DNA from: an uncultured Gammaproteobacteria bacterium
GTDB taxonomy: Bacteria > Patescibacteriota > Patescibacteriia > Patescibacteriales > CAYMCJ01
DNA length: 39,531 bases
NCBI GenBank assembly: GCA_964395755.1
Contig: CAYNBD010000001.1
Coordinates: forward strand, 1-39,531
Direction of reading: 5' to 3'
Below, in pieces: positions 1,786 to 38,718 of this stretch. Position numbers and translations under genes: made by a program. The notes under the pieces are model-generated. The model saw nothing but the letters and a program-made list of their open reading frames with translations, made no database searches and was not told where the DNA came from. Every line of letters begins with the position of its first letter. Position 1 is the first letter of the stretch.

Positions 1786-1815
1786 TAACGCATAACGTGG
1801 AACATGGAACATTTT
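1786..1815. repeat. Stuttered-word spacer (TAACG x2, GGAACAT x2)
   Basis: GTAACGCATAACGTGGAACATGGAACAT directly after the stop codon. Confidence 0.6.
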
Positions 1816-1854
1816 GGTTATTTAATAAGAAGAAGTTGGATAATGGTTTAATAT

Positions 1855-1876
1855 CTCCCTCCTTACGAAGGAGGAG
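1855..1876 (+). terminator. Hairpin CTCCCTCCTT-ACG-AAGGAGGAG, possible terminator
   Basis: 7 bp perfect stem followed by a T-rich stretch. Confidence 0.4.
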
Positions 1877-1932
1877 TTAGGGGTGGTTTGGTTTATTATT
1901 AATCTTTTTACATAATTTTTAACATCATAATT

Positions 1933-2514
1933 ATGGCGAGGAGGAAAACAACAAAAAAAACAACTGCCAGGCAGGTTAAAGTCAGGGTGGAGAAAGGAAG
2001 CGCGGGCGGAAAGCGTGCCAACGCCGGGGTGAAGCAAGCAGAACTATTGGACATTAGCCGGGAATGGGAGAAAATGTCCGGGCTGGAAGAAGCGCCCGCA
2101 CCCGCGGAAATTAAGGGTTCCCGGCCGGACAGGCGCGGACGGGAAATGGCCGAGCAGGACAAAAAAGAATTCATGTGGGCCGTGGTCAGCTTTTTTATGA
2201 TTTTATTCATCGTTATTTGGGTTTTTAATTTAAAAAACGTTTTTAAGCCTACGGAAGAGGCCGCGACTGCAAATACTGAAAATAATGAAGGCGCGGTTGA
2301 CTGGAGCAAAGTCAGGGACGAGTTCAGCGCCACCATGGAAGAGATGCGCAACGCTTTTGACGAGTTTAACCAGGAGGTTGATAATTCAACGTCGACAGAG
2401 ACGCCGGCGGAAGAAAATATTAATAACGCTGTTCCGGCCGGCGGGGAAGAGAGCGGCAATGTTTCCGCGGAAGAAGTAAAAAAACTGGAAGATAAGCTGG
2501 AACAGGGGGAATGA
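1933..2514 (+). CDS. Hypothetical single-pass membrane protein, basic N-terminus and acidic C-terminus
   Basis: One hydrophobic segment (FMWAVVSFFMILFIVIWVF). No conserved motif recognised. Confidence 0.5.
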   Translation: MARRKTTKKTTARQVKVRVEKGSAGGKRANAGVKQAELLDISREWEKMSGLEEAPAPAEIKGSRPDRRGREMAEQDKKEFMWAVVSFFMILFIVIWVFNLKNVFKPTEEAATANTENNEGAVDWSKVRDEFSATMEEMRNAFDEFNQEVDNSTSTETPAEENINNAVPAGGEESGNVSAEEVKKLEDKLEQGE

Positions 2515-2581
2515 CACAATAAAAATGATAAAATAATTAAGTAAATTGGATTTATCACTTTATCAGTTATCTATATTGCTA

Positions 2582-2652
2582 CCCGTGGACGTCCTCGTCC
2601 ACCGGGCAACTGCCGTTGCCAACCGGAGGAGTGTCGGGGAGCTGGAGCTCCC
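2582..2652 (+). other. Cluster of three GC-rich hairpins in the gyrA leader
   Basis: CCCGTGGACG/CGTCCACCGGG (2582-2606), GGCAAC/GTTGCC (2605-2620), GGGAGCT/AGCTCCC (2637-2652). No U-tract. Confidence 0.45.
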
Positions 2653-2688
2653 TAACCAGCCATCTATTAGATTTTATTTAAAGATATT

Positions 2689-5460
2689 ATGGCGAAAAAA
2701 AAGACCGTCAAGAAAGTTAAGAAAAACCCAAAAAAGAAACCAACGGTGAAAAAAACCGCCCGGATTAAGGTTGCTAAAAAAGCAATCAAGCAGGCGGTTA
2801 AACCCAAAAAGCCGGCCGGTAAAATTGTTGAACCCGCGGTTAAGAAACCGGTTAAGCCGGTTGTTAAGAAATCCAAGGCAGTTCCGGTGAAGAAAATTTT
2901 GGCCGCTGTTCCGTCCCGACCCGTCGGGGAGGAAAAGAAACCAAAGAGCCCGGAGACGGAGGACAAACAGCCGGCCATGGCGGCCGCCAGGATCGTCAAC
3001 GGCAAGGAAAAAACCGCCTTCGGCCTGGTGGAGCCGCGGGCAATCGTAGAAGAGATGAATAAGTCGTATTTGGATTACGCCATGAGCGTGATTGTCAGCC
3101 GGGCCCTGCCGGATGTGCGCGACGGCCTAAAACCGGTACACCGCCGGATTTTATACGCGATGTGGAGCATCGGCCTTAGGCCGAGCGCGAAATTCAGAAA
3201 ATCCGCCACGGTCGTGGGTGAAGTTCTGGGCAAATACCATCCGCACGGCGATACCGCGGTTTACGATTCCATGGTCAGGATGGCCCAGGATTTTTCCCTG
3301 CGCTACCCCCTGGTGCGCGGCCAGGGCAATTTCGGTTCCATGGACGGCGACGGGGCCGCGGCCATGCGTTATACCGAGGCCAAGCTGGCGTCCATTGCCG
3401 AAGAATTATTATTTGACATTGAAAAAAATACGGTTGATTTCGCGCCTAATTTTGACGGCTCGCAAAAAGAGCCCCTGGTTTTGCCTTCCCGTTTGCCCAA
3501 CTTGCTTTTAAACGGCACCATGGGCATCGCAGTCGGCATGGCCACCAACATTCCGCCCCATAATCTGGGCGAGCTGGCCGGCGCCGTTACCCATTTGATT
3601 GACAAGCCGGAAGCGAGCGTGGAGGATTTGATGCAATACGTCCAGGGACCGGATTTTCCCACCGGCGGCGTTATTTATAACCGCCAGGACATTCTCCAGG
3701 CCTATGCCACCGGCAAGGGCGGGATCGTGATGCGCGGCCGGGCGGAAATCATAGAAACTAAAAGCGGCCTGTTCCAGATAATTATTACCGAGATTCCCTA
3801 CCAGGTGAACAAGGCCAGCTTAGTGGAGAAGATTGCCGAGCTGGTCAAGAACAAAAAACTGGAAGGCATCAAGGATTTGCGGGATGAATCGGACAAGGAA
3901 GGAGTGCGCATCGTGGTGGAACTCAAGAAAGACGCTTATCCAAAAAAAATACTGAATAGTTTATATAAACATACTCAGCTGCAGGAAATTTTCCACGTCA
4001 ATTCCCTGGCCCTGGTAGACGGCATCCAGCCCAAAGTGCTGACTTTGAAAATGATGCTGGAAGAATATATCAAGCACCGGGAAGAAGTGGTGCGGCGCCG
4101 GACCCAGTTTGATCTGGACAAAGCCCGGGACCGGGCCCATATCCTGGCCGGGCTGATGATCGCCCTAAACAAGATTGACGCCGTCATTAAGACCATCAAG
4201 GCCAGCCGCGACAAAGAGGTGGCGCGCAAGAATTTAATGCGCCAGTTTAAATTAACGGACAAGCAGGCGGTCGCCATCCTGGAAATGAAGCTGGCCACTT
4301 TGGCCAATCTGGAAAGGTTAAAAATAGAAACCGAACTCAAAGACAAGAAAAAATTAATTACGGAGCTGGAAGCGATTTTGAAATCCCGCGTCCGGATCAA
4401 GGGCATCATCAAGGAAGAATTGAAAGAGGTGGTAAGAAAGCACGGGGACGAACGCCGTACCAAAATCGTGGCGCACGGAGTCAAGGACATTTCCGTCGAA
4501 GACCTGGTGCCGAACGAGGAAACCATGGTAATGATGACCCGGGACGGCTATATCAAGCGCCTGTCGCCCGATACTTTCAAGGTGCAGGGCCGGGGCGGCA
4601 AAGGCGTCATTGGTTTAACCACTAAGGAAGAGGACATGGTTGAATTTTTATTTACTACCATGGCCCATAATGACATTTTGTTTTTTACCACCCGCGGCCG
4701 GGTATTCCAGCTCAAGGCCTATGAAATTCCCCAGGCTACCCGCACGGCCAAAGGCACGCCCATCGTTAATTTTCTCCAGCTTTTGGGCGAGGAAAGAATA
4801 ACTTCCATTCTGCCTTTGGATAAAATTTCCGCCAGCAAGTTTTTGTTTTTCGCCACGGAAAGAGGGCTGGTCAAGAAAGTGAAAATCGAGGCTTTCGCCA
4901 ATGTCCGGCGCTCCGGGCTGATTGCGATTAAAATCAGGCCGGAAGACAAGCTGATTTGGGCCAAGTCGACCGGCGGTAGCGACCACATTCAGCTGATTAC
5001 CGCCGGCGGGCAGGCGATCCGTTTTCGGGAAAGCGACGTCCGGGACATGGGTCGGAACGCGGCCGGGGTAATCGGCATTCGTCTGAAAAAGGACGATATC
5101 ATGGTTGGCATGGGGGTTATTAAGAGTGATAAGGAAAAATTAAAAAAATACCAGGTGTTAACGGTGATGGAGAACGGCTTTGGCAAGCGCACCCCCCTGA
5201 ATTTGTACAAAGTTCAGGGCCGGGGCGGCTCCGGCATCAAGACCGCCCGGGTAACGGCCAAGACCGGCAAGCTGACCAACGCTTTTGTCGTTAATGCCGA
5301 GAGCATGAAAGATAAGGACCTGATCGTAATTTCGGAAAAGGGCCAGGTAATCCGCCTGCCGTTTAAGACTGTGAACCAGACCGGGCGCGACACCCAGGGT
5401 GTGCGGGTAATGCGCTTTAAAAACGAGGGCGACAAAGTGGCGTGCGTGACGTGGACATAA
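2689..5460 (+). CDS. gyrA: DNA gyrase subunit A with an N-terminal lysine/proline-rich extension of about 96 aa
   Basis: [27 protein letters not shown]; catalytic Tyr in [10 protein letters not shown]; GyrA box QGRGGKG; six beta-pinwheel blades. Residues 1-96 are AKKK/KKPVKP repeats. An alternative ATG at 2977 would give a canonical-length protein. Confidence 0.95.
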
Positions 5461-5510
5461 AAAAATAAGAAAAATAAGAAAAATAAGAACGAGAAGAATC
5501 AGGAATCAGG
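5461..5510. repeat. Tandem AAAAATAAG x3 followed by AACGAGAAGAATCAGGAATCAGG
   Basis: Read directly. 5480-5499 is identical to the reverse complement of 6717-6736. Confidence 0.85.
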
Positions 5511-5537
5511 GTTGTTTAATACAATTGACAGTTATTT

Positions 5538-5619
5538 GTCATTGCGAGGATCCCCGACCGAACGAAGCGGGTGTCGGGGGACGAAGCAATCTCTATTTTG
5601 CATTTAGGTGATTTTAAAG
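5538..5619 (+). repeat. Dispersed element copy 1: GTCATTGCGAGG - variable GC hairpin - CGAAGCAATCTCT - ATTTAGGTGATTTTAAAG
   Basis: It shares both flanks and the 18 nt tail module with the minus-strand copy at 38107-38192. Its inner hairpin CCCCGAC/GTCGGGG is unique to this copy. Confidence 0.8.
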
Positions 5620-5625
5620 TATAAA
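5598..5625 (+). promoter_or_regulatory. Candidate promoter (TTGCAT-16 nt-TATAAA) partly built from the repeat tail module
   Basis: TTGCAT at 5598-5603 and TATAAA at 5620-5625, 32 nt upstream of the ATG at 5658. Confidence 0.4.
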
Positions 5626-5657
5626 TGTGAAGGCTAATATAATAATTTAATAAAACT

Positions 5658-6411: not shown

Positions 6412-6475
6412 AACAATATTAGTTTAGATAAACTATTTTGTTGTTCACTGATGATTTCTTTGAACATTGACGGAT

Positions 6476-6517
6476 AAAAAAACACCCGCCCCGGTAAAAC
6501 CGGAGCGGGTGTTTTTT
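6476..6517 (+). terminator. Intrinsic terminator
   Basis: ACACCCGC(C)CCGG TAAAA CCGG(A)GCGGGTGT followed by TTTTTT. Confidence 0.8.
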
Positions 6518-6633
6518 GACACTTTTTTGAAATTTTGCTAAGCTGTTATAACGTTTAAATAATTAACGGAATTTGCGTGTTTAATGTGCTGTACGGTATA
6601 TAAGTTTGGGTGTTCTGAATACTAATGAAGATG

Positions 6634-6737
6634 AAAGAAAAATAAGAGAAATAAGAAAAATAAAAAAATAAGAATGGTTAACCTACTTGCTCTTTTTATT
6701 CTTATTTTTCTTCTCGTTCTTCTCGTTCTTATTTTTT
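6634..6737. repeat. Imperfect palindrome built from AATAAGAA / GAACGAGAA words
   Basis: The left arm GAAAGAAAAATAAGAGAAATAAGAAAAATAAAAAAATAAGAA faces the right arm CTTTTTATTCTTATTTTTCTTCTCGTTCTTCTCGTTCTTATTTTTT. The same word family occurs at 5461-5510 and 27134-27208. Confidence 0.85.
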
Positions 6738-6776
6738 ATACCCTGGCATTCTGAATGCGTAATTTCTACTGCAAAT

Positions 6777-7742
6777 ATGAAAAAAATAATAATTTTAATT
6801 TCGGTGGTGGTAGTTTTGATTATCGGTTATAAGGTGGTTGACATAATGATGCCCCAAAACAAAATTATTTCCCCGGAAGAAGCTCGGGCCAAAGCCGAGA
6901 ATTTTATCAATGATAATTTAATGTCGCCCGGCACTTCGGCAACGGTCAAAGACGTGACTGACGAGGGCGATCTTTACAAGGTAGTGGTGTCGGTCGGCGA
7001 TCAGGACATCGATTCCTACATCAGCAAGGACGGCTCCAAGTTTTTTCCCCAGGCCCTGGAGATGCCGGCGGAAAGCCCGGAGCAATCCGCTGCCGCCCAG
7101 ACACAAGCCAGCGGCGCTAAAGTAGCGGTTCAAACCGACCGGCCGGTAGTGGAACTTTTCGTTATGAGCTACTGCCCTTACGGCACCCAGATAGAAAAAG
7201 GCATTTTGCCGGTTTTGGAAACCCTGGGTGATAAAATTGATTTTCAGTTGAAATTTTGCGACTATGCCATGCACGGCCAGCAAGAACTGAATGAAGAGCT
7301 TAACCAGTATTGTATCCAAAAGGAAGAGCCGGGCAAGCTGCTTGGATATTTAAGCGCTTTTTTGGAAGCGGGCGATTCCGGGGCGGCTTTAAGCCAGGCC
7401 GGCATTGACGCATCTAAAATCAATGTCTGCATCGCCGCCACCGACCAGAAGTTTAAAGTTACCGAGAAATATAATGACCAGACTACCTGGAGGGGCAGTT
7501 ACCCGGTATTTGACGTTGACAAAAGCGATAACGTCAAATACGGCGTCGGCGGTTCCCCTACCCTGGTTATCAACGGCCAAGAGGTCTCAAGCGGCCGGAG
7601 CCCAGCCGCCCTGTTGTCGACTATCTGTTCCGCTTTTAATGAAGCGCCGGCGGTCTGCGGGCAAAACCTTGCTACCGCTACCCCGGCTCCGGGCTTTGGT
7701 TATGATACGACCACCGGCAGCGCTTCCGGCAGCTGTAATTAA
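6777..7742 (+). CDS. Membrane-anchored thioredoxin-fold (DsbA/GILT-like) protein
   Basis: N-terminal TM MKKIIILISVVVVLIIGY. VELFVMSYCPYGTQ motif (CPYG, single Cys), later QYC and NVC. The start was moved from 6687 because 6687-6776 is the word palindrome. Confidence 0.5.
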   Translation: MKKIIILISVVVVLIIGYKVVDIMMPQNKIISPEEARAKAENFINDNLMSPGTSATVKDVTDEGDLYKVVVSVGDQDIDSYISKDGSKFFPQALEMPAESPEQSAAAQTQASGAKVAVQTDRPVVELFVMSYCPYGTQIEKGILPVLETLGDKIDFQLKFCDYAMHGQQELNEELNQYCIQKEEPGKLLGYLSAFLEAGDSGAALSQAGIDASKINVCIAATDQKFKVTEKYNDQTTWRGSYPVFDVDKSDNVKYGVGGSPTLVINGQEVSSGRSPAALLSTICSAFNEAPAVCGQNLATATPAPGFGYDTTTGSASGSCN

Positions 7743-7763
7743 AAGATGAAAGTATAATATATA

Positions 7764-7790
7764 AAACAGTCTCGAGAACGGGGCTGTTTT
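7764..7790 (+). terminator. Hairpin plus T-run
   Basis: AAAACAGTCTC GAGAAC GGGGCTGTTTT, with G-U pairs. Confidence 0.5.
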
Positions 7791-7827
7791 ATGTTTAATT
7801 TTTATTTGTTATAATGTAATTAGTAAG

Positions 7828-7928
7828 AAATTGGTAATTTGGAAAATGTTAAACCCCTGTGATGAACACGGGGCAGACAGACGACAGGCCCAAATTACCA
7901 ATTACCAATTACCAATTTCAAATTACCA
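7828..7928. repeat. Word palindrome (ATTACCA/TGGTAAT words) around a GC hairpin
   Basis: AAATTGGTAATTTGG ... CCCCTGTG/CACGGGG ... CCAAATTACCAATTACCAATTACCAATTTCAAATTACCA. Confidence 0.8.
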
Positions 7929-7951
7929 GTTTTTATTTTTCTTATTTTTTT

Positions 7952-8671
7952 ATGGCTTTAGTTTTTGACATTGAAACCGTGGGAGCGGATTTCGACCGCC
8001 TGGGCAAGACCACCCAGGATAGTTTGACGCGCTGGATCAGGCGCGAGGCCGGGGATGATGCCGGCAAATACGAGGTGATGTTCCGGGATTTAAAAGAAGG
8101 CCTGGGATTTTCGCCTTTGACCGGGGAAATTGTGGCTTTCGGGGTTTATGATACGGACAAACGCCAGGGCGCGGTTTATTTTCAGGCTCCGGAAATGAAG
8201 CTGAAAGAATGGAGCGCGGATACTTTTATTTTTAAACCCCGGACCGAGGCGGAAATGCTTAAGTCGTTTTGGCGGGGGGCGAAAGCTTACCGCGAGTTTG
8301 TCAGCTTTAACGGCCGCTCTTTTGACGCGCCTTTCATCATGCTTCGGTCGGCGGTTCATAAAATCAAGCCGACGAAAAATTTGATGTCTAACCGCTATTT
8401 GTCTTATCAGCCCAGCGCGGTCCGGCACATTGATTTATTGGACCAGTTGTCTTTTTACGGCGCGGTCCGGCGCCGGGGAAATCTGCACCTTTATTGCCAG
8501 GCGCTGGGAATAAAAAGCCCCAAGGCTTTCGGCGTGAGCGGCGACGACATTAAGCGGCTGTTTCAAGACAAGGAGTACAAGAAGATCGCCGCATACAACA
8601 GCTGGGATCTTTTGGCCACGGCCGCATTGTACAAACGCTGGGAAGAATATGTTAAAATTTCTAATTTCTAA
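7952..8671 (+). CDS. DEDD-type 3'-5' exonuclease (RNase H-like, PolB-exo/YprB-like)
   Basis: ExoI LVFDIETVG, ExoII FNGRSFDAPF, ExoIII YNSWDLLATAALY. The start was moved to ATG 7952 because 7859-7951 is repeat sequence. Confidence 0.7.
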   Translation: MALVFDIETVGADFDRLGKTTQDSLTRWIRREAGDDAGKYEVMFRDLKEGLGFSPLTGEIVAFGVYDTDKRQGAVYFQAPEMKLKEWSADTFIFKPRTEAEMLKSFWRGAKAYREFVSFNGRSFDAPFIMLRSAVHKIKPTKNLMSNRYLSYQPSAVRHIDLLDQLSFYGAVRRRGNLHLYCQALGIKSPKAFGVSGDDIKRLFQDKEYKKIAAYNSWDLLATAALYKRWEEYVKISNF

Positions 8672-8758
8672 TAAAATTTTAAATGCCAAGCGATTAAAGA
8701 TTAATGTTTTTGGCATCAAAAATTTTTGCATTAGACATTTTATTAGAAATTAGAAATT
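8656..8758. repeat. Perfect 22 nt inverted repeat (TTTCTAA words) enclosing an inner hairpin
   Basis: AATTTCTAATTTCTAATAAAAT (8656-8677) is the exact reverse complement of 8737-8758. The inner stem is ATGCCAA/TTGGCAT (8683-8716). The left arm overlaps the last codons of the exonuclease gene. Confidence 0.9.
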
Positions 8759-8776
8759 ATAATTTAGAAATTTTTT

Positions 8777-9340
8777 ATGTATTATCGCTTAAAATACGGA
8801 AAAAATTATTTATTGAAAATTGTCATTTTGACGGCGGCGGCGCTGGCGGCGGAAATAGTGGTTCTGCAGGCCGCAGGCAGGCCGGAAGATTTTGACATCG
8901 CCGTCGGCCAGGTCAATCACATTCCCTGGGCTTATGCCGTTACCAAGATTGAAGACGGCCGCATCATCGTCGGCAATATAAGCCGGGGATTTGAAATAAC
9001 CCTGCCCGCTGACTGGCAAGTCAGGCAAAATAAGCACCCCAGTTTTTACTTGGAAGAGGAGGGTGATTTAATTTGCGAGATAAAAAGCGACGTTGTCAAA
9101 TATGACAGCGAGGAGGAGGCGGAAACGGCCCGGGCCGAAGGTTTTACCAAGGTTTATCGGGACGGATTTCCGGCCGGGGTAAAAGAGGCAATTACCGCCG
9201 CCGGTAATCTTATTTATGAAACCCGGATTTATCTTGACCAGGCGGTTGTCAAATATATTTTGTTTGCTTCCAAGCCCGATATAGCCCGTTGCCGCCAGGA
9301 ATACAATCAGATTATGAGCAGCTGGTTGTATTATGAGTAG
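8777..9340 (+). CDS. Hypothetical membrane-anchored protein, 187 aa
   Basis: N-terminal hydrophobic segment LLKIVILTAAALAAEIVVL. No motif recognised. Confidence 0.5.
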   Translation: MYYRLKYGKNYLLKIVILTAAALAAEIVVLQAAGRPEDFDIAVGQVNHIPWAYAVTKIEDGRIIVGNISRGFEITLPADWQVRQNKHPSFYLEEEGDLICEIKSDVVKYDSEEEAETARAEGFTKVYRDGFPAGVKEAITAAGNLIYETRIYLDQAVVKYILFASKPDIARCRQEYNQIMSSWLYYE

Positions 9341-9661: not shown

Positions 9662-9771
9662 TTGAAGTGAATATAATGCAAATCCGCAAATGTATGCGAA
9701 TACTTCAAATTACGGAATATGCAAATACGCCAACCATTCGCATAATAATTTGCAGCATTCGCATTATATTC
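9662..9771. repeat. Word palindrome (ATTCGCA/TGCGAAT words)
   Basis: GAATATAATGCAAATCCGCAAAT (9669-9691) faces ATTTGCAGCATTCGCATTATATTC (9748-9771). An inner TTGAAGT/ACTTCAA pair is also present. Confidence 0.8.
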
Positions 9772-9840
9772 ATCAATTTTACCCCGAGGGGGATGAATTT
9801 TCGGGGAAGGCGTTAGGCGCGTAAGTTATGACTTAATAAT

Positions 9841-11118
9841 ATGTTGGAAGATAGAAAAAAAACGAATAGCGGCGATGCTTTCCAAGCATTGTTGGATAAA
9901 GACAGCATTAAGGTGCCGCAAGTAGGTGACACGGTCAAAGGGACGGTCGTGGCCGCTTCCAAGGCCGAGGTTAAGCTTGACATTGACGGCGTTTTGGTCG
10001 GCGTGGTGCGCGGACCCGAGCTTTACGAGGAAGCCGATGAATACGCTAACTTAAAGCCGGGAGATATGGTGGAAGCGACCGTGATTGAGGAAGAGAATGA
10101 AAACGGGGAGCTGGAACTGTCTTTCCGGTACGCCGGCCAGGAAAAAGCTTTGGCCGCGGTTAAAGACGCTTTTGAAAATAAAAAAGTAATCACAGTGAAG
10201 GTGGTTGACGCCAACAAGGGTGGTCTTCTGGCTCGTTTTAAGCAGGTGCAGGGCTTTTTGCCGGTTTCGCAATTAGCGCCGGAAAATTATCCCCGGGTCA
10301 ACGGCGGAGACAAAAGTAAAATTTTGGAAAAACTGAAATCGTTTGTCGGCCAGGAATTTGAAGTAAAAATCATTACCCTGGACGAGAAGGAGGATAAGGT
10401 GATTTTTAGCGAAAAAGACGTTTGGAGTGAGAAGCAAAAAGACGTGATTGAAAAATATAAAGTCGGGACGGTGGTGGAAGGAACGATTACGGCCGTAACC
10501 GATTTCGGCGTGTTTATCAACTTCGGCGATAATCTTGAAGGCCTGATCCATATTTCCGAACTGGCCTGGCAGAGGATTGACAACCCGGCTGATTTGTTCA
10601 AGACCGGGGATAAGATTAAAGCCGAGGTTATCAGCCTGGACGGCTCCAAGATATTTTTAAGCGCCAAGAAGCTGATGAAGGATCCCTGGGAAAAAGCGGA
10701 AAAGAAATATCAGGCCGGCCAGGTGGTGAGCGGTACGATTTTGAAGGTTAATCCTTTTGGTTTGTTCGTTAAGCTGGATGATGATATTCACGGTTTGGCC
10801 CACATCAGTCAGCTGGGTCTGACCGCCGGTCAGAAAATCAACGACGTATTTAAGGCTGACGATAAGATAAGTCTGGAAGTCATCTCCATTGAACCCAAGG
10901 AGCATCGCCTGGGTTTGCGGGTCGCTAAAGATGCTAAGACGACGCCAAGAATACGCCCAACGACGCCAAAGGACGCCAAGGATGATGAAAAAGCAAACAG
11001 CAAACAGCGAACAGCGAACAAAGATGATAAGAAAATAGACGATGTCAAGGAAGAAAAAGATAAAAAGAAAGAAGATAAGAAAAAAGATAAAAAATCCAAA
11101 AAAACAACCAAAAAATAA
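9841..11118 (+). CDS. rpsA: 30S ribosomal protein S1 (four to five S1/OB repeats) with a K/D-rich C-terminal tail
   Basis: Repeated VG..V.G.V......G.FV motifs, e.g. VGTVVEGTITAVTDFGVFINF and AGQVVSGTILKVNPFGLFVKL. The tail is KDDKKIDDVKEEKDKKKEDKKKDKKSKK. Confidence 0.9.
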   Translation: MLEDRKKTNSGDAFQALLDKDSIKVPQVGDTVKGTVVAASKAEVKLDIDGVLVGVVRGPELYEEADEYANLKPGDMVEATVIEEENENGELELSFRYAGQEKALAAVKDAFENKKVITVKVVDANKGGLLARFKQVQGFLPVSQLAPENYPRVNGGDKSKILEKLKSFVGQEFEVKIITLDEKEDKVIFSEKDVWSEKQKDVIEKYKVGTVVEGTITAVTDFGVFINFGDNLEGLIHISELAWQRIDNPADLFKTGDKIKAEVISLDGSKIFLSAKKLMKDPWEKAEKKYQAGQVVSGTILKVNPFGLFVKLDDDIHGLAHISQLGLTAGQKINDVFKADDKISLEVISIEPKEHRLGLRVAKDAKTTPRIRPTTPKDAKDDEKANSKQRTANKDDKKIDDVKEEKDKKKEDKKKDKKSKKTTKK

Positions 11119-11124
11119 AATAAT

Positions 11125-11162
11125 AAAAAATCATTCCCGAAGCTTCGGGAATGATTTTTTAT
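11125..11162. terminator. Bidirectional intrinsic terminator
   Basis: AAAAAA TCATTCCCGAAGCTTCGGGAATGA TTTTTT, a perfect palindrome between convergent genes. Confidence 0.9.
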
Positions 11163-11185
11163 TGGAGTGGCTTTGAATTTTAATG

Positions 11186-15109: not shown

Positions 15110-15149
15110 AATAAATAAAGAAGGCGGTCTTTGCCTTCTTTATTTATTT
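15110..15149 (+). terminator. Intrinsic terminator
   Basis: AATAAATAAAGAAGGC GGTCTTT GCCTTCTTTATTTATT. Confidence 0.8.
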
Positions 15150-16947: not shown

Positions 16948-17110
16948 GACACGAAATAAACGAATGAACGTGAAAAGAACGAATTGAAATTTGAAATTAG
17001 AAATTGGATGATTAGTTTATTATCGCTGCGCTATTTATTAATTTATTGAATTTATTTAAGCCAATAAGCCAATAAATTAATAAACTAATAAATTAATTTC
17101 TGTTTTCTGT
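16948..17110. repeat. Successive stuttered words (ACGAA, GAAATT, AATAA/GCCAATAA, TTCTGT)
   Basis: GACACGAAATAAACGAATGAACGTGAAAAGAACGAATTGAAATTTGAAATTAGAAATTGG ... AAGCCAATAAGCCAATAAATTAATAAACTAATAAATTAATTTCTGTTTTCTGTAGTCTGTT. GAAAAGAACGAA is shared with 23325-23375. Confidence 0.8.
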
Positions 17111-20770: not shown

Positions 20771-20890
20771 TTAATTAGTGAGATAGTTGAATTAGTTAAA
20801 TAGTTAAGTCATTAACGAATGGTTTGTCGGCATTATTCTAGATGTATTAATCATAGGTTAACAATTGTCAATAATAGTTAATAGTGAGTG
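20771..20890. repeat. Stuttered-word spacer (TAGTTAA/TTAAT words)
   Basis: GTTAATTAGTGAGATAGTTGAATTAGTTAAATAGTTAAGTCATTAAC ... GTCAATAATAGTTAATAGTGAGTGGTTAAT. Confidence 0.7.
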
Positions 20891-21673: not shown

Positions 21674-21699
21674 AATTGTATTATTTTTGCCGGCCCAAA

Positions 21700-21769
21700 G
21701 TTATATGTTATAAGTTATATGTTATTGGCAGATTTTATAACCCATAACCGATAACATATAATCAATAAC
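21700..21769. repeat. Word palindrome (GTTATAT/ATAAC words)
   Basis: GTTATATGTTATAAGTTATATGTTAT faces ATAACCCATAACCGATAACATATAATCAATAAC. Confidence 0.8.
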
Positions 21770-21778: not shown

Positions 21779-23356
21779 ATGTATTTTAAAGTTATCAAAA
21801 TATTTTTTATATTTTTTATTATATTATTTATTTCCGCTTGCGCTATGAAAGATAATAATTTAAAAAATGTCAGGCCGGCTTTGACGGCCGGGCAGTATTA
21901 TCCGGCCGCGCCCGCGTTGCTGGAAGAAAGAATTGCCGGTTTTTTGGACTCGGTGGCAGCAGTCGAAAATCCGGGCGCGGTGCGGGCGATAATGGCGCCT
22001 CATGCCGGTTTGGATTACAGCGGCCGGGTGGCGGCCAGCGCCTACAAACTTTTAAGCGGCCGAAAAATAAAGACGGCGGTGATAATCTGCAATTCCCATT
22101 CTTCTTATTTCCCGGGCGTGGCCATTGATGAGCATGACGGCTGGGAAACGCCTTTGGGTACGGTAGCGGTTGACCAGGAACTGGCGCGCAAATTGGCAGC
22201 CGCCAGCGCCGCGATTAATTTTAATGACGAGCCTTTTGTCGCCCCGGACCAGACCCTGGAAATTCAGCTGCCTTTCCTGCAGACCGTTTTGGCGGACGGG
22301 TTTAAAATTGTCCCCATATTTTTTGGCAATCAGGGAGATGAGAGCTATAAAGAACTGGCCCGGGCACTGAAAGAAAATTTAAGCGCCGATGATTTAGTAG
22401 TAATTTCCACCGATATGTCGCATTATCCGGCCTATGAAGATGCTAATCGGATTGACAGGCAAACCCTGGAGATTATCAAGGCGGCTGACACGAGCGCTTT
22501 AGAAAAGCATATCGCCGACACGGAGAGCCGGCATATTCCCGCCGAGCAAACCCTGTTGTGCGGGATTGACGGCGTAAAAACCGGGCTGGAATTATATAAG
22601 CTGGCCGGCTGGGGCGAGATTAAAATTTTGTCTTACGCCAATTCCGGCGATATTGCTATTGGCGACAAGGAGAGTGTTGTCGGTTATGGGGCAGTGGCGT
22701 TTTATGAGACGACAACAAACAACGAACAACAAACAACGAACAGCAAACAGACGGCAGGAACAGAAGATAGATTTGACAATTTATTAAATATGAAGCAGCA
22801 AAAAGAACTATTGGATATTGCCCGGAAGACCGTTGAGGCGTTCGTGACCACCGGCAAGATACCGGAATTTAAGGTTGAGGATGAGAGGTTAAATTTGCAG
22901 GAAGGAGCATTCGTGACTTTGCATAAAGACGGGCAGTTGCGGGGCTGTATCGGCCAGATTATGCCCGGCGATCAGCCTTTGTGGCAGGTGGTCAGGGATA
23001 TGGCCGCGGCCGCCTGCGCGGAAGATAACCGTTTTCAGCCGGTGAGCAAAGATGAGCTGGAAAAATTAACTTATGAAATCAGTGTTTTGTCCGCGCCGGA
23101 ATTGATTGCTGACTGGCAAAAAATTGAGTTAGGCAAGCACGGCGTCATTGTCCGCCAGGGGGTACATAGCGGCGTATTTTTACCTCAGGTAGCCGCGGAA
23201 ACCGGCTGGTCGCGGGAGGAATTTTTAAGCCAGCTTTGCTTTCAAAAAGCCGGCCTGGCCCCGGATTGCTATCGGGATAAAGATACGGAATTGCGAATAT
23301 TTACCGCCCAGGTGCTTGGGGAAACACACGAAAAGAACGAAGAAATACGAAAATAA
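21779..23356 (+). CDS. Fusion of a Memo-like domain (AmmeMemoRadiSam system protein B) and an AMMECR1 domain (protein A)
   Basis: N-terminal half has MAPHAGLDYSG. C-terminal half has GAFVTLHKDGQLRGCIGQ. The linker is TTTNNEQQTTNSKQTAG. A possible lipoprotein signal (ILFISAC) applies only if ATG 21779 is used; the alternative ATG 21845 removes it. Confidence 0.8.
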   Translation: MYFKVIKIFFIFFIILFISACAMKDNNLKNVRPALTAGQYYPAAPALLEERIAGFLDSVAAVENPGAVRAIMAPHAGLDYSGRVAASAYKLLSGRKIKTAVIICNSHSSYFPGVAIDEHDGWETPLGTVAVDQELARKLAAASAAINFNDEPFVAPDQTLEIQLPFLQTVLADGFKIVPIFFGNQGDESYKELARALKENLSADDLVVISTDMSHYPAYEDANRIDRQTLEIIKAADTSALEKHIADTESRHIPAEQTLLCGIDGVKTGLELYKLAGWGEIKILSYANSGDIAIGDKESVVGYGAVAFYETTTNNEQQTTNSKQTAGTEDRFDNLLNMKQQKELLDIARKTVEAFVTTGKIPEFKVEDERLNLQEGAFVTLHKDGQLRGCIGQIMPGDQPLWQVVRDMAAAACAEDNRFQPVSKDELEKLTYEISVLSAPELIADWQKIELGKHGVIVRQGVHSGVFLPQVAAETGWSREEFLSQLCFQKAGLAPDCYRDKDTELRIFTAQVLGETHEKNEEIRK

Positions 23357-23383
23357 CGAAAATACGAATATTGTATTCAGCAT

Positions 23384-25919: not shown

Positions 25920-25924
25920 GATGC

Positions 25925-26165
25925 TCCTCCTCGTTTTTAGAGGGTTTGAGCGCGACAGGTACCCTGGGGAAAATAACTTGGCCGGGGCACTCCGGCTGTT
26001 ATTTCCTTTCCCGGGGTGAACGCCGTTGCTTTACAGCCGGAAGCAAGAGAGGGTCTTCTGACAGCGGAATTCAGCCACCCGGACTTACGTCCGCCTCTAA
26101 ATTCATATCAGTTCCGTTCTTGTTCGTCTGCCCCGCCTGTCAACGGGAATTTTTTAAAGAACTTC
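25925..26165 (-). ncRNA. Candidate structured 5' leader (riboswitch-like) of the 160 aa gene
   Basis: GC-rich and non-coding. The closing helix is GACAGG/CCTGTC (26136-26141 with 25954-25959). On the minus strand there is a CGGAC-GUAA-GUCCG hairpin with a GNRA loop (26080-26093). The loop of hairpin 26026-26046 is complementary over 8 nt to 25992-25999. A CCCUCU tract lies next to the SD. Confidence 0.4.
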
Positions 26166-26172
26166 AAATTAG

Positions 26173-26199
26173 CTTATACTTTAACAATAAAAATGTCAA
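26173..26199 (-). promoter_or_regulatory. Weak candidate promoter (TTGACA-15 nt-TATAAG) for the leader
   Basis: Reverse complement of TGTCAA (26194-26199) and CTTATA (26173-26178). The 15 nt spacer is suboptimal. Confidence 0.3.
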
Positions 26200-26240
26200 A
26201 TATTTGCCTAAAAAATAAACTTATGTTAGCATAAAACTAT

Positions 26241-26297
26241 AATCCGAATGCTCCGAATATTTATAAATAAATTATTTCGGTCATTCGGAGCATTTGG
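26241..26297. repeat. Word palindrome (CCGAAT/ATTCGG words)
   Basis: AATCCGAATGCTCCGAATAT faces TATTTCGGTCATTCGGAGCATTTGG. Confidence 0.8.
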
Positions 26298-26326
26298 ATA
26301 TATTTGTAGATTTGGATTATATTTTT

Positions 26327-27133: not shown

Positions 27134-27208
27134 AAAGAGAAATAAGTAAAATAAGAAAAATAAGAAATATTTTTTATTCTTTCGCTTATTCTTATTTTCT
27201 TATTTATT
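27134..27208. repeat. Palindrome of AATAAGAA words (third locus of this family)
   Basis: AGAGAAATAAGTAAAATAAGAAAAATAAGAAAT faces TTATTCTTTCGCTTATTCTTATTTTCTTATTT. Confidence 0.85.
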
Positions 27209-27533: not shown

Positions 27534-27577
27534 AAAACCAAAAAGACAGCCCTATTTTTAGGGGTGTCTTTTTGGTT
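27534..27577. terminator. Bidirectional terminator shared by hup and the tRNA operon
   Basis: AAAACCAAAAAGACAGCCC TATTTTTA GGGGTGTCTTTTTGGTT. Confidence 0.8.
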
Positions 27578-27651: not shown

Positions 27652-27657
27652 TCATTT

Positions 27658-27738
27658 AGTTATAAAGTTTAAAGTAGAAAGTTATAAAATAAATTTTAAC
27701 ACTTTTAACTTTACAACTTTATAATTTTTACTAATTAG
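27658..27738. repeat. Word palindrome (AAGTT/AACTT words) between tRNA-Met and tRNA-Lys
   Basis: AGTTATAAAGTTTAAAGTAGAAAGTTATAAAA faces TTTTAACACTTTTAACTTTACAACTTTATAA. Confidence 0.8.
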
Positions 27739-27985: not shown

Positions 27986-28024
27986 AATTACAGAGTTAAC
28001 TCTGTAATTAACAATGATCAATGA
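27986..28024. repeat. Perfect 24 nt palindrome plus tandem CAATGAT x2
   Basis: AATTACAGAGTT|AACTCTGTAATT (27986-28009), then AACAATGATCAATGATCAA. Confidence 0.85.
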
Positions 28025-28402
28025 TCAACTGTTCTTTCGGCTGGCTTTTCTGGCGCCGTCTTCATTAGAGCCGAAATGATGGGCGATTTCATGCCTGACC
28101 GTGCTGGTTACTTTTTCCCTGACCTCTGCTTCGTTGGCGCTATGCGCGCAAATCGGCTGGCGAAAAATCGTAATCCGGTCCGGCAAAACCGGGCCGAAGT
28201 TAAGCCTTTTGGCCTGGCAGTAGCCCTCAAACAAGCCGAATAAAGTGTATCGGCTTTTTCTTCCCACCTTGCCCAACTGCTCCGGCGTTGGGTAATCTTC
28301 GACGAAAATAGCCGCGTTATTAATTTTGGCTTTAATATTATTCGGTAAATTATCCAGAGCTTCAACTACTAATTGTTCAAATTTTTCTTTGTCTATATTC
28401 AT
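28025..28402 (-). CDS. Zincin-like metallopeptidase family protein (Zincin_1/DUF1025-like)
   Basis: HEIAHHFG zinc motif near the C-terminus. Size and N-terminal FE.LV.EAL..LP pattern are typical of the family. There is a 4 nt overlap (ATGA) with the upstream methyltransferase gene. Confidence 0.7.
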   Translation of the reverse strand: MNIDKEKFEQLVVEALDNLPNNIKAKINNAAIFVEDYPTPEQLGKVGRKSRYTLFGLFEGYCQAKRLNFGPVLPDRITIFRQPICAHSANEAEVREKVTSTVRHEIAHHFGSNEDGARKASRKNS

Positions 28403-29091: not shown

Positions 29092-29101
29092 AGGTGTTAT
29101 A

Positions 29102-29145
29102 ACGCGAATGACGCGAATTATACTATCATTCGCGTTCATTCGCGT
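29102..29145. repeat. Word palindrome (ACGCGAAT/ATTCGCGT words) directly after the recQ stop
   Basis: ACGCGAATGACGCGAAT (29102-29118) faces ATTCGCGTTCATTCGCGT (29128-29145). Confidence 0.85.
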
Positions 29146-29146
29146 A

Positions 29147-31351: not shown

Positions 31352-31383
31352 GGTGTTAAACACCCTATAGGGTGTTTAACACC
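31352..31383. promoter_or_regulatory. Perfect 32 nt palindrome in the divergent recQ / amidohydrolase control region (candidate operator)
   Basis: GGTGTTAAACACCCTA|TAGGGTGTTTAACACC, 16+16 nt with no mismatch. Confidence 0.5.
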
Positions 31384-32647: not shown

Positions 32648-32659
32648 AAATTATTCCAT

Positions 32660-34575: not shown

Positions 34576-34580
34576 ATTAT

Positions 34581-34611
34581 AAAACCCGCCAATTCGCTCG
34601 GCGGGTTTTTT
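34581..34611 (-). terminator. Terminator of the glyA-folD operon
   Basis: AAAACCCGCC AATTCGCTC GGCGGGTTTT, T-rich on both sides. Confidence 0.75.
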
Positions 34612-34634
34612 ATTTGCAGAGATATCTTTAGAGA

Positions 34635-35555: not shown

Positions 35556-35558
35556 ATT

Positions 35559-36410: not shown

Positions 36411-36476
36411 AAAGTTTCAAGGCACCAAAGTTTCTTTTGATGCCTTGTGGTTTCCAATTGAAATAAAGATTCATAG

Positions 36477-36764
36477 TTATGCTCCTTTCTGCACTTTAAG
36501 TATTTTTTCGGCTTCGCCAAGTACTTTTTGCATCTCCAATAAATTCATTTCAAAGCCTTTTTTGATTTTATAGTCAGTCACAGTTTTGAGCAAAGCAATG
36601 TATCCTTTCATAATTTTTCGGGCTTGGGCGATGATTTCTTCAAAAGTCCATGAGTTGAATCCTCGGCCGCTTTCCAGCTGCGGTTTCCATTCGCCGAAAT
36701 CCATGAATAATTCATCTAATTTTCTCTCGGTTTCAATTGGAAATTTTAATTTTTTACTCGCCAT
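36477..36764 (-). CDS. Hypothetical helical protein, 95 aa, between glyA and folD
   Basis: ATG 36764 is preceded by AAGGAGGA. The longer ORF start at 36830 would overlap the glyA 3' end. No motif recognised. Confidence 0.5.
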   Translation of the reverse strand: MASKKLKFPIETERKLDELFMDFGEWKPQLESGRGFNSWTFEEIIAQARKIMKGYIALLKTVTDYKIKKGFEMNLLEMQKVLGEAEKILKVQKGA

Positions 36765-36786
36765 TTTAGTCCTCCTTGGTTTTAGA

Positions 36787-38034
36787 TTATATGCTGGGAA
36801 TCGGGAATTGTTTGCACATTTCCCGGACATCGGCTTTTATTTTATTTAAAACCTCAATTTCATTTTTATGTTCTATCGCCCGGTTAATCCAGGAAGCGAT
36901 TTTTTTTATTTCGTTCTCTTTCATGCCGCGGCTGGTGATTGCCGGCGTGCCGAAACGGACGCCGGAGGGATTCATGGGCGGGTTGGGGTCATTGGGTACG
37001 GTGGAGCGGCTGACGGAAATACCGACTTTGTCCAGAATTTCTTCCGCGTCCCGACCGCGCAAATTTTTGCTGGTCATATTAACCACCATTAGATGATTAT
37101 CAGTCCCGTTGGAAACCAGCCGGAAGCCGAGGTTCATAAATTCTTGGGCCAGGGTTTCAGCATTTTTAATTACCTGGCGGGCGTATTTTTTGAATTCCGG
37201 CTTTAGGGCTTCGCCAAAAGCCACGGCTTTGGCGGCGTTAATGTGGTCATGCGGCCCGCCCTGCATTCCCGGAAAAACGGCTTTGTCCACCTGTTTAGCC
37301 CATTTTTCCCGGCACATTATGATAGCGCCTCGGGGGCCGCGCAGGGTTTTATGGGTAGTGGTAGTTACGACATCAAAAAACGGCACCGGATTATTCATTT
37401 CTCCGGCCGCAATCAGCCCGGCCGTGTGGGCGATGTCGGCGAAAGTGTAAGCATTGACTTCATCGGCAATTTCTTTAAATTTTTTCCATTCCACTTCCCG
37501 CGGGTAAGCGCTATAGCCGGCCACGATCATTTTCGGTTTTTCTTTTTGGGCGATTTGTCTGACTGCTTCCATATCAATCCGGCCGCTTTGGGGATTAACT
37601 TCGTATTGGAAGAAGTTATAAAGCATGCCGGAGAAATTAACGGGGTGCCCGTGGGAAAGATGGCCGCCGTGGTCAAGCTTTAAGCCCAGGACTTTATCTC
37701 CCGGTTTTAGAAAGGCCATATAAACAGACGCATTGGCCGGTGAACCGGAAAGAGGCTGGACATTGACGTGCTCGGCGGAAAAAAGTTTTTTCGCCCGTTC
37801 GATAGCTATAGTCTCCACCTTGTCTATGTTTTGGTTGCCGCCATAATAGCGGTGTCCGGGATAGCCCTCGCTGTATTTATTGGTTAAAACCGTTGCCATG
37901 GCTTCCAGCACCGCTTTAGACGCGTAATTTTCCGAAGCGATTAGTTCCATTTCTTCGCTTTGTCTTTTTATTTCCTGCTTGATGGCCGCCATAATTTCCG
38001 GGTCCTCTGCGGATAGATTTTTATAATCAAACAT
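36787..38034 (-). CDS. glyA: Serine hydroxymethyltransferase
   Basis: LIASENY, YSEGYPG.RYYGG, TTTTHKTLRGPRG (PLP lysine), GGPH, NPSG.R.GTPA.T.RG. Confidence 0.97.
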   Translation of the reverse strand: MFDYKNLSAEDPEIMAAIKQEIKRQSEEMELIASENYASKAVLEAMATVLTNKYSEGYPGHRYYGGNQNIDKVETIAIERAKKLFSAEHVNVQPLSGSPANASVYMAFLKPGDKVLGLKLDHGGHLSHGHPVNFSGMLYNFFQYEVNPQSGRIDMEAVRQIAQKEKPKMIVAGYSAYPREVEWKKFKEIADEVNAYTFADIAHTAGLIAAGEMNNPVPFFDVVTTTTHKTLRGPRGAIIMCREKWAKQVDKAVFPGMQGGPHDHINAAKAVAFGEALKPEFKKYARQVIKNAETLAQEFMNLGFRLVSNGTDNHLMVVNMTSKNLRGRDAEEILDKVGISVSRSTVPNDPNPPMNPSGVRFGTPAITSRGMKENEIKKIASWINRAIEHKNEIEVLNKIKADVREMCKQFPIPSI

Positions 38035-38068
38035 AAAGTTGTTGTTTATTTAGAACTTACGCGTTTAC

Positions 38069-38192
38069 TGTCATTGCGACACCCGCCCGCTGGCGGGGAA
38101 GCAATCTCTTTAAAATCACCTAAATATAATTACAGAGGTTGCTTCGCCCCCCGCACCAGTTTTTCAAACTGGAGCGGGGCTCCTCGCAATGA
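38069..38192. repeat. Inverted pair of the conserved-flank / variable-hairpin element
   Basis: The short plus copy (38069-38108) is GTCATTGCGAC-CCCGCC/GGCGGG-AAGCAATCTCT. The long minus copy (38107-38192) is GTCATTGCGAGG-CCCCGCTCCAGTTT/AAACTGGTGCGGGG-CGAAGCAACCTCT-ATTTAGGTGATTTTAAAG. Confidence 0.85.
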
Positions 38193-38250
38193 CGAATAAA
38201 GGCGGTGATTTAACCAAATGCGCAAGTATTAAATTAATAAATTAGAGTTT

Positions 38251-38646
38251 TTATTTCAGAAAACCGAAATGCTTTAGAGCGGGAATGATGTTCGGAGCCA
38301 AGTCAGACGGTAAATTATCAATATCCAGCCAGGCCCACTCCCGGATGTCAGGCCCAGGCTTTATTTCTCCCTCGCGTTCGGCCAGGAAATGAACCAAGAT
38401 AACGTCAATCACGCCCTCCGGTTTTTCTTTGCGGGCAAAGGTGATAAATGGTTGCTCATTCAGGATTTTAGTATCAATGCCCAGTTCTTCTTTAGCTCGT
38501 TTTTGGGCCGCTGCGGCTAAACTTAAGTTAAAATCATCCATTTGGCCGCCGCAGAATTTCCAGAAATTCGTGTCGCCGTGCTTGTCCAGGAGCGCTTGTC
38601 CGTTTTCCACGATCACCGGCCCGGCAGCGATTATGGTTTTTTGCAT
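38251..38646 (-). CDS. NUDIX hydrolase
   Basis: Nudix-box-like GGQMDDFNLSLAAAAQKRAKEELGI, 131 aa. Confidence 0.7.
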   Translation of the reverse strand: MQKTIIAAGPVIVENGQALLDKHGDTNFWKFCGGQMDDFNLSLAAAAQKRAKEELGIDTKILNEQPFITFARKEKPEGVIDVILVHFLAEREGEIKPGPDIREWAWLDIDNLPSDLAPNIIPALKHFGFLK

Positions 38647-38718
38647 ATATTTAAATTACAAATACACAAATTTAATCACAAATAACACAAATACTATATT
38701 TGTAATTTGTAATTTTTA
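38647..38718. repeat. Word palindrome (ACAAAT/ATTTGT words)
   Basis: AATTACAAATACACAAATTTAATCACAAATAACACAAATACT faces ATATTTGTAATTTGTAATTT. Confidence 0.8.

Follow-up and report, generated by a model that had tools for sequence, protein, structure and literature searches.

The 39,531-bp stretch of DNA analysed here (the window) is a whole contig of a metagenome-assembled genome (MAG) and carries the housekeeping genes gyrA, rpsA, ftsH, a pilB-like gene, rny, ymdB, hup and recQ, as well as three tRNA genes. Its closest relatives are Patescibacteria labelled Candidatus Falkowbacteria, at approximately 69-73% amino-acid identity. The subject of this analysis is a set of intergenic elements, here called stutter hairpins, in which a short word is repeated in tandem with small variations and the resulting array is met again nearby in reverse complement. 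Closer strains were sought by genome and metagenome scans and by a protein search, which returned only an identical 1.5-kb contig from the Joint Genome Institute (JGI) and relatives at or below about 73% amino-acid identity; an exact-protein look-up with the product of window gene 8777-9340 gave no match. Strain-level turnover was followed in strain pairs among the relatives, in place of the window's own spacers. Since the JGI contig (L076) is 100% identical to window positions 7632-9104, a region that includes two of the elements, and since independent assemblies of relatives from many unrelated projects have the same spacer architecture, an artefact of assembly, which the preliminary description of this DNA had named as an alternative, is excluded. 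Related DNA was taken from 155 loci around orthologues of the exonuclease gene (7952-8671 in the window) and from 12 more around ymdB. All statistics over many loci refer to the exonuclease-gene loci plus the window, de-duplicated to 129 loci with 1.45 Mb and 1,125 spacers.

Curation of the gene map gave 34 window spacers of at least 25 nt. Stutter was measured as a tandem score at periods 5-10 against 100 dinucleotide-preserving shuffles per spacer, with Tandem Repeats Finder (TRF) as a second method; folding was compared with 60 shuffles per spacer, and ungapped inverted repeats were searched for in the real and the shuffled spacers. The tandem score lay above that of all 100 shuffles in 10-11 of the 34 spacers, against about none expected from the shuffles, and TRF reported matching arrays, which are thus longer than composition predicts, as in long simple-sequence repeats with units of 5-11 nt. 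Array density was 1.6 per kb in intergenic and 0.12 per kb in coding DNA. Twenty-two spacers folded better than all 60 of their shuffles, many of these being ordinary terminators. The inverted-repeat search found 20 ungapped repeats, compared with 1.1 in shuffles, and they fall into two classes. The first has GC-rich stems, loops of 3-7 nt and A and T runs at the flanks, and consists of classical terminators; the second has AT-rich arms, loops of 11-61 nt and high tandem scores, and is the class to which the preliminary description had drawn attention. AT-rich, long-loop inverted repeats occur in about 12 of the 34 spacers. The earlier observation was therefore real and stands up to composition-matched shuffles, but it was overstated: such palindromes had been attributed to almost every spacer, and about one third qualify, classical terminators occupying the convergent spacers instead. 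Among the 15 loci originally listed, about 10 combine stutter with a hairpin.

The clear cases follow in order along the window, with strand, and with the limits listed earlier in brackets where ours differ. At 6634-6737 (+), 9-mer AAGAAAAAT-type units form arms at about 6635-6674 and 6691-6737 (z -3.6; inverted repeats scoring 13 and 12), 40 nt before the start at 6777 and downstream of a terminator at 6477-6517. Folding and the inverted-repeat search identified a hairpin at 7828-7928 (+) whose arms of GGTAATT / CCAATTAC heptamers lie around an inner GC-rich hairpin, between a terminator at 7759-7794 and the start at 7952. The hairpin at 8652-8762 (+; 8656-8758) has 38-nt arms of ATTTCTA / ATTAGAA heptamers (z -6.3; inverted repeat score 23), ends 15 nt before the start at 8777 and is identical in the JGI contig. 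This ATTTCTA array takes in the end of the exonuclease gene, its last codons and its stop codon included (8656-8671), and in the related locus L141 the first GTAATT unit likewise includes a stop codon; at both sites the repeats shape gene ends. A composite at 16948-17110 (+) joins ACGAA-, TTGAAAT-, TAAGCCAA- and AATAAATT-type words with a 15-bp inverted repeat (T=18; z -2.0), and the orthologous spacer of L085 holds a GGTAATT hairpin instead. At 21698-21768 (+; 21700-21769) the arms are (A[AT]GTTAT)n and (ATAACnn)n (z -4.4), a 5-nt core being kept while two positions per heptamer vary. The hairpin AAATAAGAA / TTCTTATTT at 27134-27208 (+), found by folding, tandem score and inverted repeats, fills the ymdB-to-hup spacer. 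On the minus strand, AAAGTT-type words form a hairpin between tRNA-Met and tRNA-Lys at 27652-27737 (27658-27738; z -4.3), ACGCGAATGA units form one that fills the recQ-to-methyltransferase spacer at 29093-29146 (29102-29145; z -5.6) and is absent from the orthologous spacer of L160, and ACAAAT / ATTTGTA words fill a 72-nt co-directional spacer at 38647-38718 (TRF, folding and inverted repeats).

The remaining listed loci are partial cases. Two are hairpins with weak stutter: a long hairpin within the long rpsA (ribosomal protein S1) leader at 9662-9773 (+; 9662-9771; z -4.5; score 13), whose TGCGAAT / ATTCGCA words are spaced irregularly and whose tandem score was not significant against dinucleotide shuffles, and a hairpin of ATCCGAAT / ATTCGGAG words at 26242-26299 (+; 26241-26297; z -6.6), whose array runs to the ymdB start. 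Two others are one-armed arrays that form no hairpin: (AAAAATAAG)x3, AACGAGAAG and (GAATCAG)x2 directly 3' of the gyrA stop at 5461-5510 (+; TRF 59; T=20, P=0.00; E=0; no inverted partner in cis), and a weak AACATGG x2.7 stutter at 1786-1815 (+; z 0), as judged by TRF, folding and tandem score. At 20771-20890 (+) the two sides of TAGTTAA-type words are poorly complementary and the case is weak (TRF 46-57; z -1.1; P=0.22). The locus at 27986-28024 (-), a short-loop 10-bp hairpin with a small tandem repeat (CAATGAT x2.4) just 3' of the stop of gene 28025-28402 (z -5.7), is more like an ordinary 3' hairpin. For contrast, the inverted-repeat and terminator scans found a classical bidirectional terminator in a convergent spacer at 11122-11163, and other classical terminators lie at 15110-15148 and 27536-27577 in addition to the two mentioned above.

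The same feature is present in the closest relatives, in MAGs labelled Falkow-, Magasanik-, Moran-, Kuenen- and Yanofskybacteria, and it is restricted by lineage. Kaiserbacteria-like loci have essentially no arrays, and neither do several loci whose GC is only 31-33%; absence from loci that are equally AT-rich indicates that the trait is lineage-specific and that AT-richness alone is insufficient. The spacers of the 129 loci contained 321 inverted repeats, compared with 24 in shuffles, and 38 of the 321 belong to the stutter class. As in other long simple-sequence repeats, heptanucleotide units predominate: period 7 was found in 57 of the 99 arrays, period 8 in 19 and period 9 in 14 (p = 4e-20 against a uniform distribution). 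An inverted partner lay within 150 nt of 28 of the 99 arrays, while a non-adjacent direct partner was found for one and shuffled flanks gave about one, so the pairing is highly non-random. The arrangement first described, a word followed by its reverse complement, is thus far above chance where it occurs, but two thirds of the arrays are solitary and not palindromic.

The vocabulary of these arrays is large, with approximately 45 different canonical heptamers in 53 genome/unit combinations and at least 10 words in the window alone, and in this sense the word does differ between most loci. It is not true, however, that each spacer has its own word, as families are common to several spacers and genomes, non-orthologous sites included. 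The AAATAAGAA family occurs in four window spacers (5461, 6634, 7930 and 27134) in both orientations, with a 20-mer common to 5461-5510 and 6717-6736 in opposite orientation; it is the only family that recurs within the 39.5-kb window, itself one contig of the genome. The element GGTAATT...CCAAATTACC is found at non-orthologous spacers in the window, L141 and L085 with homologous arms, including an inner 10-mer, and unrelated cores. Not every element, then, is of local origin. The tetranucleotide AATT was present in 29 of the 57 heptamer units, compared with 6.1 expected (4.8-fold, p = 5e-14). Palindromic micro-homology as the cause of this enrichment was ruled out because TTAA, TATA and ATAT were not enriched. 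Heptamers with an AATT core, among them AAAATTG, AAATTAG and AATTACC, were met repeatedly, in as many as six genomes. Alternating units (TTAAAAC/TTGAAGC and AAGTTAT/ATGTTAT) point to slippage of higher-order units of 14 nt. By inspection, no purine/pyrimidine or orientation rule was found for the arm on the stop side as opposed to the start side.

The geometry of the stutter class sets it apart from the terminators, as the preliminary description had proposed. Its 38 inverted repeats have a median loop of 34.5 nt, an arm GC of 0.20 and arms of 22.5 nt, whereas ordinary inverted repeats in the same loci have a loop of 6 nt and a GC of 0.38. The 8 nt after the 3' arm contain a mean of 2.96 T, with six or more T in only 1 of 25 cases, although this test separates the classes poorly, as A/T runs are absorbed into the detected arms. 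Neither hallmark of an intrinsic terminator, a GC-rich stem with a 3-8-nt loop or a U/T tract after the 3' arm, was found, and the missing T-run indicates that the stutter hairpins are not intrinsic terminators. Position also distinguishes them. Array density is 0.85 per kb in co-directional spacers compared with 0.28 in convergent and divergent ones (p = 1e-5), and ordinary inverted repeats are enriched in convergent spacers. In spacers of this co-directional kind, the median distance is 10 nt from the stop to the beginning of the left arm and 19 nt from the end of the right arm to the next start, and elements commonly occupy the spacer from end to end (window 8652-8762, 29093-29146 and 38647-38718; L085 12020-12107; L141 548-661). 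In longer spacers the order is stop, GC-rich terminator, promoter-like block, stutter hairpin and start (window 6412-6776 and 7743-7951; L007, L009). The arms of 22.5 nt, the enrichment in co-directional spacers and the presence in a tRNA spacer correspond to what is expected of an RNase III-type processing hairpin, with about 20 bp or more in a co-transcribed spacer. Rfam covariance models, run on the window at the gathering threshold and at E <= 0.1, matched the three tRNAs only.

A promoter-like block, TTGnnn-17-TAGCAT within AAAAAACTTATGTTAGCATA, precedes ymdB in three genomes (window 26203-26243, L160 3055-3090, L156 5783-5815) and is conserved between them although their 4-fold degenerate sites are saturated. 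The hairpin begins just after it; in the window, the element at 26242-26299 lies directly 3' of the block (approximately 26205-26233). Leader length 3' of the block is 25 nt for L160, whereas the window has about 92 nt and L156 about 190 nt.

How these elements arise can be read from their orthologous spacers. The preliminary description had suggested local slippage or templated duplication that builds hairpins in situ, and the ymdB leader bears this out. Upstream of ymdB, a single ATTTGGATT unit adjoins the start codon in L160, 4-5 units are present in L164, and the five units of the window are joined by an inverted arm, which repeats the array and part of the resident leader in reverse complement. 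This graded series is direct support for stutter in situ followed by templated inverted copying, and together with the 14-nt units it establishes slippage and then inverted copying as the steps of origin. In the mechanism so reconstructed, replication slippage multiplies a short word beside a gene boundary, about 7 nt (also 8-9 nt) at a step, and all or part of the array is then copied nearby in the opposite orientation, for which template switching is the simplest route, to give two arms 10-50 nt apart. Both arms keep slipping thereafter, with the consequence that words change quickly and higher-order 14-mers appear.

The suggestion that words turn over while the hairpin persists at orthologous spacers was likewise borne out. 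In the spacers around the exonuclease gene the words are ATTACCA and ATTTCTA in the window, AAATAAGA and TTTTCAA in L011, ATAACCA in L007, GATACAA in L009, ATAACGC in L005 and AATCGRC in L008. L005 and L008 are 89% identical and have unrelated elements at the same spacer, and between L014 and L100, which are 99.5% identical, AAGTG words are replaced by AAGCT words at one spacer. Every substitution and most indels between the latter two are confined to that spacer and to the final 140 nt of the coding sequence upstream of it (L014 10431-10608), as though the stutter words had been exchanged within a localised recombination tract or at a hypervariable spot.

Where orthologous hairpins can be aligned, 81-98% of the arm positions are kept while cores and loops diverge, and in the same genome pairs identity at the 4-fold degenerate sites of ymdB is only 38-58%. 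For the ymdB-hup hairpin, 31 of 32 arm positions are identical between the window and L163, against 58% of 4-fold sites. The ymdB-hup spacers of L160, L156 and L164 have a common TTAGTTAC hairpin with 20-25 conserved pairs, and between L165 and L166 two compensatory changes in the same spacer convert GCGAAT/ATTCGT to TCAAAT/ATTTGA. The spacer between tRNA-Met and tRNA-Lys, compared between the window and L156, retains 28 pairs with one compensatory change, two G.U changes and no broken pair. Over all comparisons, changes in paired columns comprised three compensatory, six one-sided changes to G.U on the transcribed strand and two breaks. As judged from these alignments, selection has kept the arms complementary in a subset of the elements. 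The ymdB-hup spacer of L156 contains two hairpins, the TTAGTTAC one and a near-perfect one, gacctactgcataataa...ttattatgcagtaggtc, which at about 160 nt (6790-6950) is much longer.

Taken together, the stutter hairpins are probably a lineage-specific class of AT-rich stem-loops in the 5' leaders, intercistronic spacers and tRNA spacer of co-transcribed genes. The interpretation we favour, and hold with about even confidence, goes further: that they are selected RNA stem-loops which mark leaders and cistron boundaries and which are built and remodelled by slippage and inverted copying. The hairpin would form in the RNA and mark the boundaries between cistrons, a molecular role suggested by its position and geometry. 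It could be a processing or stability element, either the site of a double-strand-specific RNase or a block to exonucleases, or it could insulate the AU-rich translation start just downstream; it would not be an intrinsic terminator.

Several results weigh against this interpretation, and the evidence on selection and on its level is conflicting. The conservation evidence comes from a small sample of five pairwise or three-way comparisons, in which RNAalifold picks pairs that hold in all sequences and so favours counts of preserved pairs. In a pooled strand test the stutter hairpins had 56 G.U pairs in the sense and 60 in the antisense direction (mean dE 0.01), whereas ordinary hairpins in the same spacers had 192 and 126 (p = 3e-4), and a bias as strong as that of the ordinary hairpins is excluded for the stutter class (p = 0.005). 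Equal counts on the two strands fit elements whose symmetry is one of the DNA, or elements of such recent origin that selection has left no visible mark. The solitary arrays, two thirds of the total, have no partner with which to pair, and some arms have diverged unit by unit so that periodic mismatches remain (21698-21768; L141). The enrichment of AATT-cored heptamers is left unexplained by an RNA stem-loop model, and no RNase or other partner was identified. Finally, a generic promoter scan found 14 matches where 9.0 +/- 3.4 were expected, which is not above chance, so the placement of promoters rests on inspection and on the block conserved in three genomes.

Many of these same points are what would be expected if the elements were a neutral by-product, in which AT-rich spacers gain functionless arrays and quasi-palindromes through slippage by about 7 nt and, from time to time, fold-back template switching, and keep them only where DNA is unconstrained. 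The G.U pairs without strand asymmetry, the solitary arrays and the rapid turnover, with presence/absence differences between genomes that are 89% and 99.5% identical, all agree with this, as does a density that is lowest in divergent spacers, which are packed with promoters, and the leakage of arrays into the tails and linkers of open reading frames (ORFs). In many prokaryotes, moreover, heptanucleotides are the most frequent of the long simple-sequence repeats, and slippage of the polymerase has been put forward to explain them (PMC4679880, citing Mrazek 2007). Neutrality does not account for orthologous arms that are conserved despite saturated 4-fold sites and whose changes mostly preserve pairing, for the 28 to 1 preference for inverted over non-adjacent direct partners, or for equally AT-rich Candidate Phyla Radiation (CPR) loci that have no arrays. 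We therefore regard a purely neutral origin as possible but fairly unlikely.

At the other extreme, it is interesting to speculate that one CPR branch has evolved a self-renewing punctuation of its transcripts, in which hairpins made de novo beside gene boundaries by 7-nt slippage and inverted templating, with AATT-cored heptads read by a putative dedicated protein or RNase, partly replace conventional promoters, terminators and ribosome-binding signals of its streamlined genomes. We judge this stronger proposal to be unlikely.

A third possibility is that the elements are miniature mobile elements similar to miniature inverted-repeat transposable elements (MITEs) or REPINs, the stuttered arms being terminal inverted repeats that move between spacers. 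Copies at unrelated sites, which such elements should have, do exist in the GGTAATT...CCAAATTACC element at its three non-orthologous spacers; members of the AAATAAGAA family lie in four spacers of the window, in both orientations, and presence or absence differs among relatives. By eye, however, neither target-site duplications nor fixed termini were seen in the window, L085 and L141 elements or in a comparison of filled and empty ymdB sites, and arm length varies by whole units. Dozens of different words would require many transposases in genomes of about 1 Mb, no transposase was present among the window ORFs examined, and the ymdB leader series is one of growth from resident sequence. Mobility of this kind is quite improbable.

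The regular 7-nt spacing could instead reflect protein binding, with 4-5-nt cores, often AATT, placed 7 nt apart as direct and inverted iterons; candidate readers would be ribbon-helix-helix proteins like the omega repressor, or OB-fold/cold-shock proteins, which cover about 7 nt per domain. The strong period-7 peak, the 4.8-fold enrichment of AATT and of no other AT palindrome, an invariant core with one or two variable positions in some arrays, and the conservation of sequence beyond pairing between the window and L163 are consistent with such sites. Half of the heptamer words lack AATT, however, and since the cores differ between loci (ATAAG, CGAAT, GTTAT, AAGTT), a single sequence-specific reader cannot fit all of them. 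Omega-type sites use the same 7-bp heptad throughout; here the 7-bp period and both orientations are present, and the word depends on the locus. The compensatory changes between L165 and L166, which alter the word and keep the pairing, speak for structure, and no candidate protein was identified. Little probability can be given to this explanation.

That the elements are simply the organism's own Rho-independent terminators is very unlikely: hairpins do lie downstream of genes and some enclose a GC-rich inner hairpin (7828-7928; L010, L014), but the long loops, AT-rich arms and near absence of T-runs given above are wrong for terminators, separate classical terminators exist and dominate the convergent spacers, and several elements lie downstream of a terminator and a promoter-like block. 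Other classes, namely integron attC sites, CRISPR arrays and DNA-uptake sequences, were weighed and set aside because the genes are housekeeping genes, there is no conserved core site and no single word is used genome-wide.

Stutter also extends into coding sequences. TRF reported a heptamer array of ACAACAA units at 22712-22749 (+) that encodes amino acids 312-324 of ORF 21779-23356, the linker between a Memo domain (36-305) and an AMMECR1 domain (346-512), and ACGAAAATA units at 23328-23368 run across the stop codon of the same ORF. ACGCCAA and AAACAGC units are found in the C-terminal tail of S1 (10941-11020). This suggests that spacers have been absorbed into proteins as linkers and tails, and such absorption may have fused two genes.

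Other structured or repeated DNA was seen in the window. A GC-rich repeat (cattgcgag...gaagcaatctc and an adjacent 18-mer) occurs in two spacers in opposite orientation, at 5532-5619 and 38108-38199, and looks like a separate dispersed element. A divergent spacer (z -6.2) contains a GC-rich, strongly structured stretch at 25920-26240 that matched nothing in Rfam and may be an unannotated RNA. A perfect 14-bp palindrome, ggtgttaaacaccc / gggtgtttaacacc with a loop of 4, lies at 31352-31383 in the divergent spacer between recQ and gene 31559 and looks like an operator. At 904-988, a 12-bp GC-rich inverted repeat, ggggggtagcag / ctgctacccccc, spans 61 nt in which a tandem TAGCAGTTGCAT lies and may be a small structured RNA.

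The CPR, or Patescibacteria, make up a large and mostly uncultured part of bacterial diversity, and how transcription and RNA processing are organised in their small genomes is almost uncharted. If the stutter hairpins are selected RNA elements, they would provide a map of cistron boundaries and leaders in one CPR branch that can be read from sequence, and an example of a functional structure generated from scratch by slippage, in which the words turn over and the fold persists. If they are neutral, they would still report an unusual, lineage-specific regime of 7-nt slippage. In practical terms, stutter extends or fuses ORFs through linkers and tails and blurs the calling of starts and stops, and stutter spacers are hotspots of strain variation that could serve as markers.

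A search of the literature on CPR bacteria found no description of such elements, in agreement with the preliminary description, which knew of no formal account of this architecture; in other bacteria, though, intergenic heptanucleotide repeats have been described (PMC4679880, PMC4692102). Heptanucleotide repeats are over-represented between genes in other bacteria, with slippage as the proposed cause (Mrazek 2007 via PMC4679880), and heptamer repeats with inverted pairs have been noted (PMC4692102). The elements resemble long simple-sequence repeats in being imperfect intergenic tandem arrays with period 7 the commonest, presumably of slippage origin, and in varying rapidly in copy number and sequence among relatives. 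They differ in that 28% of the arrays are paired in inverted orientation, in that words vary by locus within one genome, and in the CPR host lineage, which lies outside those surveys. Similar tandem heptamers in spacers, often near start codons, are the short tandemly repeated repetitive (STRR) sequences of cyanobacteria, the GGGAATC-type repeats of Xanthomonas and Nostoc (PMC4692102) and the TAACTGA repeats of Beggiatoaceae (PMC4679880). Xanthomonas has a few inverted heptamer pairs able to form stem-loops (PMC4692102), and S1, Csp or CsrA have been proposed as possible readers of TAACTGA (PMC4679880). Those genomes rely throughout on a single word or a small fixed set, with G-rich words in Xanthomonas and Nostoc, whereas the stutter hairpins draw on a large, AT-rich and locus-specific vocabulary.

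Hairpins of repetitive extragenic palindromic (REP) sequences stabilise upstream mRNA. REP sequences, the bacterial interspersed mosaic elements (BIMEs) that contain them and REPINs, which consist of two inverted units and the spacer between them, are like the stutter hairpins extragenic imperfect palindromes common between co-directional genes of operons (PMC3116915). They are, however, high-copy families of conserved sequence spread by REP-associated tyrosine transposases (RAYTs), and neither such a conserved sequence nor a transposase is evident in this 39.5-kb contig; the arms of the stutter hairpins are internally tandem-repetitive. The intercistronic RNase III hairpins of phage T7 and the stem-loops of chloroplast polycistronic mRNAs give each spacer its own long stem-loop, conserved in structure over sequence; they punctuate polycistronic RNA and are not terminators, and their role in cleavage or stabilisation has been shown experimentally. 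The stutter hairpins would be like them in all three respects of an own stem-loop per spacer, structure over sequence and punctuation without termination, and are unlike them in being built of tandem words and in that any part they play in cleavage or stabilisation is an inference. Rickettsia palindromic elements, a mobile family of conserved sequence, are hairpin-forming repeats of a reduced genome that are found inside protein-coding genes as well. The present elements are likewise hairpin-forming repeats of a reduced genome with some occurrences inside genes, but their in-ORF pieces are one-armed heptamer arrays in linkers and tails. Against these known systems, three things appear to be new: AT-rich arms of locus-specific tandem words paired in inverted orientation in leaders and intercistronic spacers, the restriction of the feature to one CPR branch, and the combination of fast turnover with long-term conservation.

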